Origin: Chamaesiphon sp.
GTDB lineage: Bacteria; Cyanobacteriota; Cyanobacteriia; Cyanobacteriales; Chamaesiphonaceae
DNA: 13,883 nt
Assembly: GCA_965246715.1 (NCBI GenBank)
Contig: CBDFFH010000004.1
Coordinates: forward strand, 1 to 13,883
Direction of reading: 5' to 3'
The stretch's first letter is position 1. Every line of letters begins with the position of its first letter. The position numbers and the translations under genes were made by a program. The notes below the pieces were generated by a model that did not search any database, had not been told where the DNA came from, and saw only the letters and a list, made by a program, of their open reading frames with translations. This document shows, one piece after another, positions 5,910 through 13,883 of this stretch.

Positions 5910-8686
5910 CAAGGATTAAGAATTACAAGCAAAGCTTTATTTGTTAGCAAGAAAAATAGAAAATTGAGGTTACTATCGAATTTCTTGACCGATCGATTGT
6001 TATGATTGCCGTTCTTGGTTATCAAGCTATTGAAAAACTCTACGAAAGCTCTCGATCGCTGATTTATCGAGCGCGGCGCAGTGTCGATCTCACTCCTGTC
6101 ATCCTGAAAATGTTGAGACAGGAGTATCCATCACCCCAAGCGATTGCCAGGTTTGAGATGGAATACGATATCCTGCGGAGCTTGAATTTGGCTGGTGTTG
6201 TTACCGCTTATGGGTTGGAAACTTTTCAACAGAGCTACTTCATCGTGCTGGAAGATTTTGGTGGAAAATCTTTGCGATCGTGGTTATCCGATCGAACTTT
6301 TAACCTAGCAGAATTTCTCCAATTCCCAGTCCGCTGTCGGATTTGGTGATGAAGTTGTTGGCAAAAAATGCCGAAGATCGCTATCAAACTACTTTGGGTA
6401 TTCAAGCAGATTTGCAAGCCTGTCTCAGCCAACTTCAGCAAACCCAAGCGATTACCGATTTTGCGATCGGTCGTGGGGATATTTCTAGTACTTTACAAAT
6501 TCCCCAAAAACTGTATGGCAGAGAACAGGAAGTACAGCAATTATTAGCTGCGCTGGAGCGAGTTGGTAGTGAAGATTGTCAGAGCGAACTGATGTTAATG
6601 TCTGGCTATTCGGGGATTGGTAAAACTACATTAGTCCGAGAATTATATCAACCAATTACGCGCCAACGTGGATATCTTATTACGGGTAAGTTCGAGCAAT
6701 TGCAACGCAATCTGCCTTATTCGGCAGTAATTCAGGCATTTCGATCGCTGATTAAACAACTATTAACTGAAACCTCAGCCCAACTCGAGCAGTGGCGATC
6801 GCGATTGTTAGCAGCTTTAGGTGACAATGCGAGGGTGGCGATCGATATTATTCCCGATCTGGAATTGTTAATTGGCGAACAACCAAAAGCGATCGATTTA
6901 CCACCTGCGGAATTGCAAAACCGATTTCATATGGTGTTAGAAAAGTTTATTGGGGTATTTACTCAATCTGTTGTCACTGACGATCTGCAAACCATTTATC
7001 CGCTGGTAATTTTTCTAGACGATTTGCAATGGGCAGATCGAGCATCCTTGCAATTAATTCAACAATGGCTAACCGGATTTAACGATCGACATTTGTTGGT
7101 AATTGGGGCTTATCGAGATAATGAGGTCGATGCTACCCATCCATTAATGCGATCGATCTCGGAAATTCAGCGTTCTGGTGGGACGGTGCATCAAATTGAA
7201 TTACCACCGTTAGGATTGGCGGATCTGCATTGTCTCGTTCGAGATACGTTCCATTGCGATTCCGAATTATCTTTGGCTTTAGCCCGATTGACACTAGAAA
7301 AAACCAATGGTAATCCATTTTTTATCAATGAATTTTTGAGATATTTGAATCGAGAAGGAGCGATCGAATTCGATCTCGATCGAGGTAAATGGCAGTGGGA
7401 TTTAGAGCAGATTCAGACAGCGCGACTATCCGATAACGTTGTGGAATTGGTGACAATGCGACTGCAACATCTACCGATCGAGACTCAACGAATTCTTTCT
7501 TTAGCAGCTTGTATCGGCAGTCAATTTAATCTCATAACTCTAGCAGTCGTTCGCGATATTCTAACTCAAAATGATTCTGAATCTCTCTCGGAAACCGTCG
7601 ATACTTTACACATTGCTGCCCAAGAAAACTTAATTACACCCCTCAGCGATGACTATAAATATCTTAATACCAATACTCGATTAGCCGATCTAAATTTTGA
7701 TGTTAGTTATCAGTTTTTACACGATCGCATTCAACAAGCTGCTTATGGTTTAATTTCAAGCGATCGACAAGTTGAATATCATTTGGAAATCGGGCGATAT
7801 TTACAACGATCGACTCCTATAGGACAGTTAGAAGATCGAATTTTCGATATTATCGACCATCTCAATCTCGGTGCAAATTTGATTGCAGATCGGTCTCAAA
7901 AGCATGAGTTGGCGCAACTAAATTTAATCGCAGGTCGCAAAGCAAAACTAGCAATCGCTTACGAACCTGCGGTCAGATATCTCACCACAGGATTACAACT
8001 TTTGACAGAATCTAGTGAGCATCTCAAGAATACGATTCCGGCATTATTAGAAGGCGTTAAAAGCGGATTAGAAACAGGTTCGCTCGAATATGCTGGCTAC
8101 AATGCTTTGTATTTTTGCGACCACCTATTCTTTACTAGCGAACCGTTAGCCGTCGTTTTAGAACAGCAGACTCAGCAACTATAATCGATGCGAAAGCTCA
8201 GACAAGATGTGCATATTTCTTACCTGAAAATTTGGCGAATTCTGCTGTTAAAGTTACTCGAAGCACCGCAAACTGACTGGCAATTTTGCGACGAGATTTT
8301 AAATGAAACTGAATTACTCAATTGGTCGATCGCTGCCGACAAGCAAATGTTTGTATTTGCGGCTTATTTAAGTCGATCGATCTGGTTTTATACGATCCAA
8401 GATTATCAACAATCGATCTATTGTGCCCGATTAGCCACAGAATATCAGAGTGGTGTGGTGGGGTTGGTGATGGATGCCGAGCATACATTCTATTATGCAT
8501 TGGCTCTGTCAGCTTATCTATCTGAAAACCCACAAATCGAGCAGTCACAATCTTTAGCAGCGATCGCCAAACATCAAGAAAAACTCCGCCAGTGGTCGAT
8601 TCATGCACCGATGAATTATCTCCATAAATTTCATTTAGTAAAAGCAGAACATTACCGAGTTTTGGGTCGAGATCTAGCAGCCGCCG

Positions 8687-11098
8687 ATGCTTACGATCGA
8701 GCGAGCGATCGATCTGGCTCAAGCACATGAATATCTCCACGAAGAAGCCCTCGCCAACGAACTCGCAGGCAGATTTTATTTGGCTAAAAGCAAACCCAAA
8801 ATCGCTCGCGCCTATTTATTAGATGCACGATATATTTATCTTCGTTGGGGTGCAACTGCAAAAATTAACGATCTCGCTCGACGTTACCCACAATTCTTAG
8901 ATCGTTTACCAGAAAGAATCGCAACTGTTACTAATAGCCAACCTTCCACTTCTACCACCAGCAGTAATGAAACATCCACCCTCGATCTGGCAGCTTTAAT
9001 GAAAGCATCTCAAGCACTTTATGGCGAAATTGTGCTAGATAAATTGTTGAGAAAATTGATGACAATCCTGATGGAAAACTCTGGCGCACAACGCGGCTGC
9101 TTGCTGATCGATCGCCATGATAAGATCCATATTGCAGCAACCGCTGATGTCGAGCAAAGCGGTGAATCGGTGTTACTTACAATTATACTCGACAGCGAAA
9201 CAGCCCAAGATCGAATTGCACTGTCGATCGTCAACTATGTAGCACGAACTCAATCAAATATCGTCATCGATCGAGCCACCCAAGATTTACAGTTTAACCA
9301 AGATCCCTATATTCAAAAACATCAACCCAAATCCATTCTTTGTACCCCCTTAATTTACCAAGGTAAACGATTTGGGATTCTGTATCTAGAAAACAACTTA
9401 ACCCCCGCTGCTTTTACCCCAGAACGATTAGAAATATTGCAATTTCTCTCCACCCAAGCCGCAATTTCCCTCGACAATGCTCAACTCTATCATCAACTAG
9501 AACTACGAGTCCAAGAACGTACCCTAGAACTCACCCAGACAAACGATCGACTTCAAACTGAAATCTTAGAACGCCAACGCTCCGAACAAACCCTCCGGCT
9601 GATTGTGGAGGGCACAGCGGCAGTTACCGGAGCAGACTTCTTTCGATCGCTAGTTCAGACTCTAGCCCAAGCTCTCGGCGTGCGTTACGCCTTCATCAGC
9701 GAGTGCTTAGATGCCCTACCCACCCGCGTTCGCAGCTTTGCCTTTTGGCAGGGAACTGATTTTGGCGAGGAGTTCGAGTACGATTTAGCTGGCACACCTT
9801 GCGAACGAGCGATCGAAAGTGGCGGCTTCAAGTGTTTCCCCGCCCAGATCCAGAGCTTGTTTCCCGCAGAAAAAGCGGAATTTGAGGCAATGGAGGCACA
9901 AAGCTACGCCGGAATTGCCTTACTCAGTTCGACTGGCAACCTCTTGGGGCATTTAGCCATATTAGACGACAAACCGATCGAACTGGAATCCCGGATTCAG
10001 GCAATTCTAGAGATTTTCGCCGCCGCCGAAATGGAACGCCAGCAAGCCGAAGATGCCCTGCGAGTTTCCGAAACCAAATTCGCCACCGCCTTTCGCTCCT
10101 CCCCCGATGCCATCACTATTAGCACCCTCGACGATGGTTGTTACGTCGAAGTCAACGAGAGTTGCTTACAGATGTTGGGCTATCGCCGCGAAGAAATCCT
10201 CGGACGCAGTGCCCTAGAGCTAGGAATTTGGGCACATCCACTCGATCGAGAACACATCAAACAACAGTTACAATCCCAAGGCACAGTCACCAATCGCGAG
10301 ATCGAATTGCGCCGCAAATCGGGTGAGATTTTCCCCGCCCTCTTCTCCGCCGAAGCCATCCAACTAGAAGATGAACCCTGCATCTTATCCATAGCCGCTG
10401 ACATTACCCTCCTCAAACAAGCCGAAAAAGCCTTAGCCAGACTAGCCGAAATTGGCGAACTAGCCGCCACGATCGTCCACGAAGTCCGCAATCCCTTAAC
10501 CACAATTTTAATGGGTTTAAATGCCTTTAAAAAGCTCCAACTAGCCGATCGATTTCAAGAGTATCTAAACTTATCCTTAGACGAAGCCGATCGATTGCAA
10601 CGCTTACTCAGCCAAATCTTACTCTATTCCAAACCCCAAACACTCGATCGATCTCAACTAGAACTCAACACCTTCATCGCCGAAACAGTCAATACCTTAC
10701 AAACCATCCCTGCCGCTTCAGGCAAACATCTAAACTTTACACCCCTTCCCGAACCCATCAATGTTTTCGCAGATAAAGATAAGTTAAAACAAGTAATCAT
10801 TAATTTAGTCACCAATGCCTGCGAAGCCGTAGATCCAGGTGAAGTCATTACTATTAACATTCAAGCAAGTGAGAATCAACGAGTTTGCATTCAAATTCAC
10901 AATGGCGGTACGCCGATTCCTGCCGATGTTTTACCACAGTTAACTAAGCCGTTTTTTACCACTAAAGCAAGTGGTACGGGGTTGGGACTCGCGATCGTTA
11001 AACGGATTGTGGAAGCTCATGGTGGTGAGTTTAGTATTGAGTCGGGGGAGGGAATTGGATCGATCGTTACAGTGAAACTTCCGTTGGTGTTATTCTAG
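8687..11098 (+). CDS. Open distal fragment: GAF-GAF-PAS-HisKA-HATPase; independent expression unproven
   Basis: 803 open codons with H, N (QVIINLVTNACEA), F (PFFTTK) and G2 boxes. The 8687 ATG is in this frame only because of the frameshift; an in-frame ATG at 8999 (MKASQ) sits at the start of the first GAF. Confidence 0.45.
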   Translation: MLTIERAIDLAQAHEYLHEEALANELAGRFYLAKSKPKIARAYLLDARYIYLRWGATAKINDLARRYPQFLDRLPERIATVTNSQPSTSTTSSNETSTLDLAALMKASQALYGEIVLDKLLRKLMTILMENSGAQRGCLLIDRHDKIHIAATADVEQSGESVLLTIILDSETAQDRIALSIVNYVARTQSNIVIDRATQDLQFNQDPYIQKHQPKSILCTPLIYQGKRFGILYLENNLTPAAFTPERLEILQFLSTQAAISLDNAQLYHQLELRVQERTLELTQTNDRLQTEILERQRSEQTLRLIVEGTAAVTGADFFRSLVQTLAQALGVRYAFISECLDALPTRVRSFAFWQGTDFGEEFEYDLAGTPCERAIESGGFKCFPAQIQSLFPAEKAEFEAMEAQSYAGIALLSSTGNLLGHLAILDDKPIELESRIQAILEIFAAAEMERQQAEDALRVSETKFATAFRSSPDAITISTLDDGCYVEVNESCLQMLGYRREEILGRSALELGIWAHPLDREHIKQQLQSQGTVTNREIELRRKSGEIFPALFSAEAIQLEDEPCILSIAADITLLKQAEKALARLAEIGELAATIVHEVRNPLTTILMGLNAFKKLQLADRFQEYLNLSLDEADRLQRLLSQILLYSKPQTLDRSQLELNTFIAETVNTLQTIPAASGKHLNFTPLPEPINVFADKDKLKQVIINLVTNACEAVDPGEVITINIQASENQRVCIQIHNGGTPIPADVLPQLTKPFFTTKASGTGLGLAIVKRIVEAHGGEFSIESGEGIGSIVTVKLPLVLF
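10991..11098 (+). repeat. Kinase 3'-end repeat, copy 1 (resident gene end)
   Basis: GCGATCGTTAAACGGATTGTGGAAGCTCATGGTGG... recurs at 12591 and 13581. Confidence 0.95.
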
Positions 11099-11192
11099 AG
11101 CGATCTATGCAGAAAGTTTCCTTGTCATAAATATTTAAACTACTCTTTGGGTATATTAAATAATAAATCTGTGCTAATGAAGGATATAGCAT

Positions 11193-12167
11193 ATGAAGAT
11201 TACTGCTGACGAGTTTTTTAGTCGCTACGCTGATGGAGAGCGAGATTTTTTCGGAATAAAACTTGTTAATGCTGATTTGAGCAGAGCAAATTGGGCAGAT
11301 CCCAATCCAGTTGGACAAACCATTACTGGTAGCGTCTTAGGCGAAGGTGATTTTAGCGGTACGGACTTTAGAGCGAATGATATGCGAGGCTGTAATTTTA
11401 GTGGTTCTAAGCTAATTGGTTGCCGATTTGACAGAGCTGACTTGACTGGGGGGTGCTTCGATCGTGCAGATTTGACTAACGCTTCTTTTGTTGGAGCTAA
11501 CCTTTCTCGCGCAGAAATGATTGAAGCGAATATTACTGGCGCAGATTTTACAGGAACCGATCTGACTGGTGTAACATTGCCCTCATCTGAAATCAGTGAT
11601 GTTGTTTGGGATGAAAGTGATGCGGTTAAAAGCTGGGTAATTCAAACAATTCAGTACTACCGAAAAATCGACTTTTTCACCCAATACATTGCGTTATCAG
11701 ATGAAGAACTCACAAATACAGTAAAGCATTTGTGTCGGAAAGAAGCACATATTACAGGCGGAAACTTTGATGCTAGAGGTGATTGGGAGGTGATTCGCTA
11801 CGATCGACAGCGAATTATCGAGAAATCCCTTGATGGAATGTACGGCGACGATCCTGGCGAGTACAATTTTGAGGCTTCTCTTGAGACTCTACAAGCGTGG
11901 ATAAATATTTCTCGTGGTACGTTTCAGCCTGAGAATATCAGAAATGTTGACGAGTACTTGGTGGAATTTACACTCAACGACTCTTTTTATACACTGAACC
12001 CTTGGGAAGATCCAAATCAACTTGCTCCACAAATCAATTCTCTAATTGCACAAACAGGTTATCAGTTTGAAGTTTGGAATCTCTATCCAGATTGTTTGAT
12101 TACTGTTCTCACAAGCGAAGAAAAACAGAGGCTCCAATCTGAAAAAAATTGGACTTTTTCAGACTAA
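11193..12167 (+). CDS. Pentapeptide-repeat protein with uncharacterised C-terminal domain
   Basis: Typical cyanobacterial cap (EFFSRYADGERDF), A(D/N)(L/F)xx repeats over about residues 25-130, then a ~190-aa non-repetitive domain; AAGGA upstream of the ATG. Confidence 0.88.
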   Translation: MKITADEFFSRYADGERDFFGIKLVNADLSRANWADPNPVGQTITGSVLGEGDFSGTDFRANDMRGCNFSGSKLIGCRFDRADLTGGCFDRADLTNASFVGANLSRAEMIEANITGADFTGTDLTGVTLPSSEISDVVWDESDAVKSWVIQTIQYYRKIDFFTQYIALSDEELTNTVKHLCRKEAHITGGNFDARGDWEVIRYDRQRIIEKSLDGMYGDDPGEYNFEASLETLQAWINISRGTFQPENIRNVDEYLVEFTLNDSFYTLNPWEDPNQLAPQINSLIAQTGYQFEVWNLYPDCLITVLTSEEKQRLQSEKNWTFSD

Positions 12168-12270
12168 GATATGTAAAGAAGTATTGAATATCGAGTAAAG
12201 TGGGGTGAAGGAGTACTCACTATCTAGGTTTTGTATAATCATAATATTTCGATGCTTATGTAGATCTACT

Positions 12271-12492
12271 TAACCTCAGTTCGGGGTAAGGATATACAAA
12301 CTCAATGATTTCTTGCTCCGCACCAGCACCGCCCTCAAATGAATTTGGGGCTAATAGAAAAAGTCTATTTCAATGGACTCTCTGAAAATCTGGCAGTTCT
12401 CTTTAGAGAACTTTTGCTATTAGCCCGAACTTATAGTTCAGGGCGGTGCAAGAACGGAGCAGATCGATTGTTCCGTTCTCGCACTCAGGTTA
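12271..12492. repeat. Nested palindromic MITE/REPIN-like element (~220 bp)
   Basis: Outer arms TAACCTCAGTTCG / CGCACTCAGGTTA. Inner pairs TGCTCCG/CGGAGCA, GCACCGCCCT/AGGGCGGTGC, GGGCTAATAG/CTATTAGCCC. Internal hairpin AGTTCTCT-TT-AGAGAACT. Confidence 0.75.
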
Positions 12493-12590
12493 CTTACTGA
12501 TTCGGCAGGTTTTGCTTTCTGTAATAATCTCGATCACTCTCGATCTCGTAATTCCACATTGACTCGATCGATTATCCTGACTTGGAATTC

Positions 12591-12683
12591 GCGATCGTCA
12601 AACGGATTGTGGAAGCTCATGGTGGAGAGGGGATTGGCTCGATCTCTAAAGTACAACTGCCAATCGAAGTTATCTCAATCTAG
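12591..12683 (+). pseudogene. Orphan histidine kinase 3' end, copy 2
   Basis: Translates AIVKRIVEAHGGEGIGSISKVQLPIEVISI*; 21-nt internal deletion between GAG triplets relative to copies 1 and 3. Confidence 0.9.
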
Positions 12684-12688
12684 AATAA

Positions 12689-12898
12689 CTACGCAGCTTC
12701 GATATATTCACAAATAGTCGTCGGTTCTGGAATGAGTAAACCTTCTAATTGCAAACCTTCGAGATGAAATGAGATTGCGGATTGGATTTGTGCTGATACT
12801 TCTTCAATAGTTGAACCCGTAGCAATACAGCCAGGTAGATCTGGTACATAAGCCGAATAATTTGTTGGTGTTTTTTCAATAATTGTCGCGTAACGCAT
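12689..12898 (-). CDS. hicB: HicB-family antitoxin (short form, no DNA-binding domain)
   Basis: YATIIEK...YSAYVPDLPGCIATGSTIEE...AISFHLEGL...IPEP; start overlaps the hicA stop (TAATG). Confidence 0.93.
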   Translation of the reverse strand: MRYATIIEKTPTNYSAYVPDLPGCIATGSTIEEVSAQIQSAISFHLEGLQLEGLLIPEPTTICEYIEAA

Positions 12899-13152
12899 TA
12901 ATTTGATTCCTCTGAATTGTCTTCTGCTGTAATTTCTGGTTCCGAGTCAGTTTCTTCGACTTTATTACCTTTGAGTTGTGCCTGTTTTAAAATGCTATTT
13001 GCTGTCCCACTGCCTAGATCGTCCGATAGTTTACCTGCAATTGTCACCAAGCCAGATTTAATCGGATGTTTGTACTGTCGATGACTTCCACGAGTCCGTA
13101 CTAAATACCAACCATCATTTTCAACGATCGAGATTGCTTCTTTAACCTTCAT
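12898..13152 (-). CDS. hicA: HicA-family mRNA interferase toxin with acidic C-terminal tail
   Basis: MKVKE...DGWYLVRTRGSHRQYKHP...GLVTIAG...GTANSILKQA; conserved GSH motif. Confidence 0.93.
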   Translation of the reverse strand: MKVKEAISIVENDGWYLVRTRGSHRQYKHPIKSGLVTIAGKLSDDLGSGTANSILKQAQLKGNKVEETDSEPEITAEDNSEESN

Positions 13153-13162
13153 GTGGCACTCG

Positions 13163-13186
13163 TTGGCGTAGCCTCCGCTTTGCGGA
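13163..13186. mobile_element. 24-nt small dispersed repeat, copy B, in CG^ATCG, 10 bp upstream of the hicA start
   Basis: CG[TTGGCGTAGCCTCCGCTTTGCGGA]ATCG; same architecture as copy A with a compensated second stem. Confidence 0.85.
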
Positions 13187-13204
13187 ATCGATTAACTAGT
13201 TTTT

Positions 13205-13378
13205 TTACTTTTGCTTAATACGGTGCAACTTTTGCTGCCGAATTAGTTCATCAAATTTAGCTATTACTTCTTCCATTTGCAGATCGACTTCCTCAAAACT
13301 TAATCGAGCTTGTCGTAAATTATCGAGCAGTCGGCGATCCACCGATGGATCTGGCATTGTAGGTTGCTTTTTCAGCAT
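13205..13378 (-). CDS. Small hypothetical helical protein, 57 aa (not in ORF track)
   Basis: MLKKQPTMPDPSVDRRLLDNLRQARLSFEEVDLQMEEVIAKFDELIRQQKLHRIKQK*; amphipathic/coiled-coil pattern; co-oriented directly upstream of hicA. Confidence 0.55.
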   Translation of the reverse strand: MLKKQPTMPDPSVDRRLLDNLRQARLSFEEVDLQMEEVIAKFDELIRQQKLHRIKQK

Positions 13379-13473
13379 AAGTTAAACTCTTGAATAATTT
13401 CTTGGTTACTCCGGTTTAAAGCTGGAATTTTTTGTTCTGTACTTTGGGCTGTTTCTAAGCTTAGTGTTGCCAT
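13372..13473 (-). CDS. Possible 33-aa ORF overlapping the 57-aa ORF start, or the 5' part of one frameshifted gene
   Basis: MATLSLETAQSTEQKIPALNRSNQEIIQEFNLC*; stop overlaps the next start (ATGCTGA); -10-like TATGAT/TAGAAT shortly upstream. Confidence 0.3.
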   Translation of the reverse strand: MATLSLETAQSTEQKIPALNRSNQEIIQEFNLC

Positions 13474-13531
13474 GCACGATCAGTCATTCCTATTCTATCA
13501 TACCTGAAATTGATGCGGATTCTCAGACTTG

Positions 13532-13556
13532 TTGGCAGAGTATCTCCTTCAGGAGA
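13532..13556. mobile_element. 25-nt small dispersed repeat, degenerate copy C
   Basis: TG[TTGGCAGAGTATCTCCTTCAGGAGA]ATCG; the homologous empty site GACTCGATCGATTATCCTGA is at 12561-12580. Confidence 0.75.
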
Positions 13557-13580
13557 ATCGATTCTCCTGAACTACAATTT

Positions 13581-13721
13581 GCGATCGTTAAACGAATTGT
13601 GGAAGCTCATGGTGGGGAGTTTAGGATTGAGTCGGGGGAGGGGATTGGCTCGATCGTCAAGGTGAAAATCCCGATCGAGTTGGCAGAACTGACACTACGC
13701 GATCGAAATAGCTTGTTCTAG
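13581..13721 (+). pseudogene. Orphan histidine kinase 3' end, copy 3
   Basis: Translates AIVKRIVEAHGGEFRIESGEGIGSIVKVKIPIELAELTLRDRNSLF*; differences from copy 1 in the shared core are largely synonymous. Confidence 0.92.
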
Positions 13722-13723
13722 TT

Positions 13724-13841
13724 GGGAGCATCCCACTTTTTAAAATTCTCAAAGAGAAAATAGGCACGATCGCTGAATAGCCTGATTACTGGTTCTTGAT
13801 ACTTTATTCTACAAACAATTAATAAAAAGTGGGATGCTCCC
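13724..13841. mobile_element. 118-bp MITE with perfect 19-bp TIRs and 9-bp target-site duplication
   Basis: GGGAGCATCCCACTTTTTA (13724-13742) / TAAAAAGTGGGATGCTCCC (13823-13841), flanked by GTTCTAGTT at 13715-13723 and 13842-13850; no coding capacity. Confidence 0.93.
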
Positions 13842-13883
13842 GTTCTAGTTCCAGTATTGAGATGGCGATATAATGTATATATC

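Follow-up and report, generated by a model that had tools for sequence, protein, structure and literature searches.

The window analyzed here is the entire 13,883-bp contig CBDFFH010000004.1 of Chamaesiphon sp. (assembly GCA_965246715.1), on which the 3' end of a histidine kinase gene is repeated downstream of that gene, with unrelated cargo genes between the copies. The host gene is an open frame of 803 codons (8687..11098, forward strand) that was assigned GAF-GAF-PAS-HisKA-HATPase domains by open reading frame (ORF) and domain searches. It represents the final segment of a Ser/Thr kinase-AAA-GAF-PAS-histidine kinase fusion that is broken; the other pieces are located at 6002-6349, 6343-8184, and 8188-8730. 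The last approximately 35 codons of the kinase form three direct copies at 10991, 12591, and 13581, with the spacing of 1600 and 990 bp that an earlier note on this sequence had described. Copy 1 (10991..11098, forward) is the in-frame 3' end of the gene, which runs from A-I-V-K-R to L-P-L-V-L-F-stop, an ending common to several orthologues. Copy 2 (12591..12683, forward) is a displaced end with a 21-nt in-frame deletion, and copy 3 (13581..13721, forward) is a displaced end with a tail extended near 13679-13703 by a short dispersed repeat of a type that we take to be SDR5. In searches against the genome, copy 3 matched copy 1 with 87% identity over 101 nt (E 6e-29) and copy 2 matched it with 92% identity over 48 nt (E 1e-12). 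The repeats in the window span 72-101 nt, and the inserts between them 1.5 and 0.9 kb. The contig terminates 160 nt past copy 3, and because the window is the whole contig, the region beyond position 13883 is invisible. The kinase array is a real, well-supported example of integrase-free cargo stacking at a gene end.

Relative to copy 1, the differences in the other copies fall mostly at third codon positions (17, 5, and 3 at third, first, and second positions; p = 0.0004 against one third), which agrees with the earlier note. Its description of the copy boundaries required revision. The motif at which the copies start, GCGATCGT, holds the core CGATCG of the highly iterated palindrome HIP1, and is not HIP1 itself (GCGATCGC). 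A TCTAG stop of its own had been ascribed to each copy; this does not apply to copy 2, where the stop is not kinase DNA and is supplied by the downstream flank of a hicB gene from 12666 onward. The sequence from this position on, including the hicAB pair, is 92% similar to a hicAB locus (L127) at which no kinase end adjoins. A different C-terminal tail had likewise been recorded for each copy. Since copy 2 takes its stop from the hicB flank, the tail of copy 3 was lengthened by a repeat insertion, and a miniature inverted-repeat transposable element (MITE) lies on the stop of copy 3, the differing tails are junction and decay products, not alternative kinase endings. This MITE (13724..13841) is 118 bp long with 19-bp terminal inverted repeats, and its 9-bp target duplication, GTTCTAGTT, is found at 13715-13723 and 13842-13850.

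Copies 2 and 3 have approximately 29 nt of upstream flank in common (12561..12589 for copy 2, forward), which contains another CGATCG. The corresponding flank of copy 3 (13525..13580, forward) is broken by an SDR5-like repeat at 13530-13556 that creates a perfect 24-bp palindrome at 13548-13571. The similarity between the two flanks was equalled by 3 of 20000 random 45-mers, and by 7 of 5000 that contained ATCGAT. Because the two copies share this flank and both end in P-I-E, the hicAB block was probably inserted at, and duplicated, an end that had been displaced before, rather than at an intact gene. No further full copy of the flank was detected in the genome (G000) or in the fetched loci, and the flank was thus rejected as a mobile end; its sole match, 19 nt in a related locus (L034), may be due to chance. 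The palindrome was also considered as an arm of an attachment site and set aside, as it is accounted for by the SDR5-like insertion, which also occurs at G000:C27.

The cargo between the copies is unrelated to them, as had been noted, and comprises genes for a pentapeptide protein, a HicB-like protein, and HicA (Pfam), together with small ORFs. The pentapeptide-repeat protein of the first insert (11193..12167, forward; Pfam) has 324 aa, and a 71% homologue in G019 is situated in another context with no kinase end. A MITE-like repeat of approximately 230 bp (12267..12498) that has many copies in the genome and the genus follows. The second insert encodes a hicB-like antitoxin of 69 aa (12689..12898, reverse; PF15919) and a hicA toxin of 84 aa (12898..13152, reverse; PF07927), followed by a short SDR5-like repeat with many copies in the genus (13158..13192). 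Next to it is a 57-aa ORF (13205..13378, reverse) without a Pfam or NCBIfam match, which corresponds to the second member of a small two-gene pair that is common among genomes of the genus; the remnant of the first gene (13379..13517, reverse) is approximately 240 nt shorter than in L132 and L133. Pfam and NCBIfam searches of the cargo identified no mobility gene in the inserts, and the two MITEs are likely later insertions. Rfam yielded no match at E ≤ 0.5 in 10900-13883, and promoter and terminator scans remained at the level of shuffled sequence (8 vs. 6.4 and 4 vs. 2.3, respectively).

The small pair of the window (13205-13517), which is also found at L131, L132, and L133, encodes helical-looking proteins of approximately 112 and 57-71 aa without an NCBIfam match. 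It is present in most genomes of the genus in varying contexts, and is possibly an unnamed toxin-antitoxin-like module. Elsewhere in the window, 1246-2382 is occupied by an IS630-family element that encodes an intact transposase of 347 aa and has terminal inverted repeats of 28 bp. The upstream kinase domains between 6002 and 8730 are broken, with a truncated Ser/Thr kinase, a stop-terminated AAA domain, and a frame change near 8700-8730; contigs of run X1 are identical to the window over 8000-9583, and relatives possess forms of the kinase with 410, 530, 700, and 1022 codons.

Eighteen kinase-family loci from 11 genomes of the genus were read, 16 of which had at least 1.5 kb of downstream sequence. 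Displaced kinase pieces were found at 6 of these 16, and the order of the cargo was not constant, as expected by the earlier note if gain and loss occur at these boundaries. The pieces consist of eight 3' ends, each comprising the last 60-130 nt of the kinase, and one internal N-box piece (L037); L040 and L044 represent one shared event, and L034 retains a collapsed relic of a displaced end. Of the genus matches, eight begin at or after query position 83, and each of them is found behind a full kinase and in its orientation. The first cargo behind the orthologous kinase, which was to be compared across strains, is of 13 different kinds among 17 loci, including MOSC, TetR-GNAT, TfoX-VOC, NADAR, a HaeII restriction system, and DUF433-DUF5615. 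Three filled/empty pairs were identified, in which a cargo that is first behind the kinase of one genome follows a displaced end in a second genome. The TfoX-VOC-TetR-GNAT block stands behind a displaced end in L044/L040 and behind the intact kinase in L034 (92% over 1433 nt); TetR-GNAT stands behind a displaced end in L001 and behind the intact kinase in L037 (91%) and L046 (78%); and NADAR, an internal cargo in L037, is the first one in L043 (92%). The empty site is therefore visible in relatives for sister arrays (L044 vs. L034, L001 vs. L037).

Differences between displaced ends and their own genes are mostly synonymous (64, 21, and 14 at third, first, and second positions), as are those among intact ends (1748, 534, and 312). 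Together with the filled/empty pairs, this bears out the claim that modules of gene end plus cargo were gained and stacked. Changes private to the displaced copies number 2, 4, and 4, vs. 13, 3, and 5 in the intact ends (Fisher p = 0.054). This pattern is expected for ends that were coding elsewhere and then decayed after displacement.

The distribution of displaced kinase ends was surveyed with 42 of 64 parts covered and 80 of 127 loci kept, of which 66 had enough downstream DNA to be examined. None was found at 62 other cyanobacterial or unassigned loci with at least 1.5 kb downstream; the two positives among the 66 are Chamaesiphon-titled and duplicate arrays that are included above. Among four metagenome loci, one (L052) has a displaced end, which starts approximately 18 nt before the core without CGATCG. 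The convergent response regulator has no displaced ends in 17 loci, and no relative of the kinase was found on viral contigs, which would have indicated phage carriage. At L002 and L045, the kinase bodies are identical over 410 nt, and a short tract near the stop differs; the tract of L002 matches its same-genome paralogue L001 and is likely the result of gene conversion between paralogue ends. Sliding third-position identity, used to locate such a tract upstream of the breakpoint, gave a signal that was too noisy. In L044 and L046, parts of the cargo genes behind the kinase recur farther downstream (153 nt at 82%; 119 nt at 85%), and the next anchor may thus be provided by the cargo itself.

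The same scars were observed across the genome. A self-comparison of G000 (4126 ORFs of at least 150 codons) gave 361 gene-repeat pairs, of which 96 were kept after the removal of high-copy repeats and paralogues. The 3' ends were copied downstream for 29 genes vs. upstream for 11 (p = 0.006), and the 5' ends upstream for 16 genes vs. downstream for 2 (p = 0.001), while internal pieces were balanced (15 vs. 11, p = 0.56). Manual removal of 7 of the 47 rows (transposase genes, repeats, and a piece split by an insertion sequence) left a set of 40 cases. The displaced lengths in this set are 53-1372 nt at 68-100% identity, and the ungapped cases show 495, 185, and 117 differences at third, first, and second positions. 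Because approximately 40 genes carry the scar, the kinase is not the special target that it had appeared to be; its locus is one ordinary member of a genome-wide class and not a dedicated system. The hosts include genes for sulfite reductase, polA, and comEC, as well as genes that are presumably gltB and acnB. The gltB array (L146, G000:C2:213435-233888) contains four displaced 3' copies over 16 kb that start 215, 1810, 216, and 957 nt ahead of the stop; toxin-antitoxin pairs and other cargo are interspersed among them. The same hotspot is found in relatives, with displaced gltB ends in G008, G015, G018, G010, and G006. An insensitive search that scored four candidates per genome also located such ends in another genus (G124) and in another family (G039). 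The acnB array (L147, G000:C51:1-18997) has three displaced ends of 1.0-1.3 kb, and its cargo includes toxin-antitoxin pairs, a methylase, an HNH gene, and an integron remnant. Many of the 68 cargo ORFs from 17 fetched loci of G000 are PIN, MazF, ParE, Fic, methylase, or transposase genes.

Mirror cases are seen at polA (G000:C13:7649-8820) and comEC (G000:C12:155185-157272), where displaced 5' ends lie upstream of the intact gene; the polA cargo resembles the small gene pair of which the window holds a decayed form. Tandem copies of gene ends with zero gap and no cargo occur at G000:C55:185398-186621, C46:108879-109720, and C15:352131-354232 (80-155 nt, 85-91%).

The reading that we favor, with moderate confidence, is that the array is a stack of cargo blocks contributed by relatives, whose DNA was integrated through one homologous arm and was joined illegitimately within the gene end. 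DNA of a relative carrying a kinase end and new cargo would be taken up, possibly by natural transformation (comEC and dprA are present in the genome), and would pair by homology on one side with the resident kinase through RecA. The other side would be joined by short microhomology inside the resident gene end, with CGATCG as a preferred but not required join, and the old kinase end and its cargo would be pushed downstream. The substrate may be linear, as in homology-facilitated illegitimate recombination (HFIR), or re-circularized, as in a single crossover; the two routes are indistinguishable from their end products because both give the same one. Later recombination between the repeats may stack, swap, and collapse modules, which fits the occurrence of the same cargo at different ranks and behind different paralogues. 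The polarity of the genome-wide scars, 3' ends downstream and 5' ends upstream, is what one-arm integration predicts, with the repeat on the outer side of the cargo for both ends. A homologous anchor and variable joins are both seen; native donor flanks can be compared at few junctions, and these show short overlaps only.

Several observations weigh against this proposal. No fresh event with a matched empty allele was found within the same species, so the donor origin of the new end is inferred, and no empty allele of the window's own modules was found among 27 genomes of the genus. The 40 cases come from a heuristic scan that may include fragments of paralogues. Synonymous differences could equally have arisen through later replacement of alleles. 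Among the 40 cases are some with gaps of 0, 1, and 2 nt, which indicate that plain tandem duplication does occur here. Breakpoints also cluster more than random joins would, as six gltB copies start 215-229 nt before the stop. Finally, HFIR is called rare and described mainly with deletion (PMC5361080, PMC3240628).

Part of this evidence suits a true target duplication, a model discussed for restriction-modification genes, in which the end of the recipient's gene is copied at break repair or by tandem duplication as the cargo is inserted, and the copies diverge later by drift and allele replacement. Besides the zero-gap copies and an end product that matches the insertions described in PMC2853133, the H-G-G ending is exclusive to the three window copies among 26 ends, the end nearest to copy 1 is copy 3, and the ends of L001 and L037 are nearest to their own displaced copies (90 and 92%). 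The share of third-position differences, 64 of 99, nevertheless exceeds the approximately 45% that we estimate for neutral drift of one copy (p = 7e-5), the displaced ends of L040/L044 have higher identity with other loci (86-87%) than with the gene that they lie behind (82-84%), and most of the cargo is not a nuclease. The silent-site bias in these alignments points to an end supplied by a donor, although later allele replacement could give the same result. A duplication of the recipient's own end is considered rather unlikely.

Integration by one-arm homology leaves room for a role of CGATCG, and a stricter version, which is close to the proposal of the earlier note, makes the methylated HIP1 core the required join, with cargo circles excised between two CGATCG sites re-entering at one. 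Most kinase copies start within 13 nt of the motif, and CGATCG lies within 8 nt of the gene-side breakpoint in 9 of the 40 cases, vs. 3.0 expected (p = 0.002), while the control words AATT and CCAG show no excess. For the six gltB copies, which follow no fewer than four cargos, the starts lie at most 14 nt apart and surround a site whose sequence is CGATCG in 10 of 16 copies without a junction. PMC4390886 and PMC13756078 refer to HIP1-linked excision and to site-specific recombination, and methylated HIP1 raises transformation (10.1101/2024.09.10.611283). Against a required join, 31 of the 40 breakpoints have no CGATCG within 8 nt, the full octamer is found at 0 of 40 (0.3 expected), and the displaced copy in L052 starts without the motif. 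The enrichment weakens to 7 of 38 without the two kinases (p = 0.02) and to 5 of 29 for cargo of at least 300 nt (p = 0.06), and is not significant with a 12-nt window without the kinases (p = 0.10). CGATCG is common in any case, at one per 221 nt of the genome, and an identical signal would result from later deletions between such sites.

The crossover that the earlier note placed at or near a HIP1 site is also not supported as a fixed point by the kinase breakpoints, which are scattered at approximately -33, -13, -12, -12, -8, -6/-3, and +33 nt from the ATCGT core, with one internal piece from approximately 190 nt upstream of it. In three displaced copies, an SDR5-like repeat is inserted between GCG and ATC, so that the kinase end seems to start more sharply than it does; a rule for insertion of SDR5-type repeats at this position is given in the review PMC4390886. 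A recombination system directed by CGATCG is quite doubtful. Joins may be favored at CGATCG, or later deletions may tend to end there, but the motif is not required. The broader idea that DNA with one-sided homology is joined preferentially at the methylated HIP1 core when it integrates at ordinary gene ends of Chamaesiphon-like cyanobacteria is put forward only tentatively.

The geometry of a regenerated target and a displaced fragment is also that of integrase-driven islands (PMC4383910), and the kinase 3' end could have been targeted by an island or integron whose integrase was lost or acts in trans. The genome has 23 tyrosine-recombinase matches, and a fragment of an integron integrase with one good attC is located inside the acnB array. 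However, the search for a linked recombinase yielded no integrase match on the contig, consistent with the earlier statement that the window lacks one, and none among the cargo proteins scanned from the kinase loci; no genome-wide search for serine recombinases was made. A recombinase at G000:C5:335357 is found past conserved response-regulator genes and is not part of the segment of L001 that the repeats enclose. The array had been called integron-like, but no integron integrase is present on the contig and no attC was found in 11000-13883, either by a strict scan or by a relaxed heuristic scan that recovered 3 sites in each of the controls L185 and L186. Candidates at the kinase loci are few and weak (2 in 53.6 kb vs. 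7 in 150 kb of random genome). The GTTAAAC of copies 1 and 3 is core-like, but copy 2 and most relatives have GTCAAAC, and the integron interpretation was not retained. In the acnB array, an integrase N-terminus (367-858), a GNAT gene (2166-2495), and an attC-like site at 2510 are read as an integron remnant carried as cargo; this N-terminal fragment is the sole integrase match among the 68 scanned cargo ORFs. Given the scattered breakpoints and approximately 40 targets that include 5' ends, the integrase or integron explanation is largely refuted for the kinase locus and very improbable overall.

It is barely credible that the copies are remnants of eroded full-length tandem kinase paralogues with cargo inserted independently between them. 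The kinase does have several paralogues and decays at its own 5' side, and L037 holds the internal N-box fragment, but two full tandem copies occur at none of the 18 genus loci and 66 further loci (at least 1.5 kb downstream), eight of the nine fragments are terminal, and housekeeping genes such as polA and sulfite reductase bear the same scars. An assembly artefact, to which the short contig ending soon after copy 3 might point, is extremely unlikely, since the copies differ by 13-18%, contigs of run X1 (which may be the source sample) bridge 10283-11417, 12420-12890, and 13164-13750 and thus all three junctions without differences, runs of another study contain related joins at approximately 90-95% identity (kinase end plus pentapeptide gene in X3; kinase end plus hicAB, without the 21-nt deletion, in X4), and the near-complete genome G020 (3 contigs) holds similar arrays.

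Among known systems, the closest in form is the insertion with long target duplication (PMC2853133), which also has cargo of less than 20 kb between direct repeats of more than 30 bp and no mobility gene. These insertions have an empty site in relatives and occur mostly in naturally competent species, with one case in Microcystis (88/88 nt). As presented in that source, they carry restriction-modification (RM) genes between near-identical repeats. In the arrays described here, the cargo is mixed (toxin-antitoxin pairs, regulators, enzymes, and some RM), with RM genes at the sister loci L038, L110, and L037 and none in the window. The repeats are coding gene ends that differ by 8-18%, mostly at silent sites, and the modules stack, at approximately 40 loci in one genome with 3'/5' mirror polarity. 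The window array works like this class but has no RM cargo, and hence is not a member as defined there; it is a variant of insertion with long target duplication.

Arrays formed by sequential displacement and ascribed to HFIR, such as the effector-immunity modules of the Vibrio type VI secretion system and the orphan modules of Rhs and contact-dependent inhibition systems (PMC5361080), likewise have a conserved upstream anchor gene behind which new modules push back old 3' ends and downstream genes, with no known integrase. The swapped 3' end is functional cargo there (a toxin tip with its immunity gene), whereas the gene end of the present arrays has an unchanged function in every copy and is a mere handle for unrelated cargo. 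Single crossover of trimmed, re-circularized linear DNA in Escherichia coli (PMC3240628) produces gene-end duplications of 109-950 bp with variable breakpoints, but was described for laboratory conjugation with identical homology and not for cyanobacteria or diverged donors. Integrase islands (PMC4383910) and integrons resemble the arrays in the regenerated gene and displaced fragment at their ends and in the gathering of toxin-antitoxin genes, and differ in that no integrase, fixed crossover, or attC was found here. HIP1-associated recombination (PMC4390886, PMC13756078, 10.1101/2024.09.10.611283) shares the CGATCG core at several junctions and the SDR5-like repeats between GCG and ATC, but the full octamer is absent from all 40 breakpoints and most lack even the core. 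A duplicated 5' fragment of acnB beside a toxin-antitoxin pair is reported on a Synechocystis plasmid (PMC7336809). No account of genome-wide displaced gene ends in cyanobacteria, or of CGATCG at such joins, was found in the literature outside supplements and most subscription papers.

These results indicate how ordinary genes can come to be followed by stacks of acquired toxin-antitoxin, restriction, and stress genes with no integrase involved. The signature, with 3' ends copied downstream and 5' ends copied upstream, provides a simple count of such gains in any genome. The modest CGATCG signal makes the long-standing question of HIP1 function testable. If a preference of such joins for the methylated core is true, each gene end would be a potential site for integrase-free cassette stacking, and the long-unexplained HIP1 repeat would gain a role in gene acquisition that leaves countable scars.

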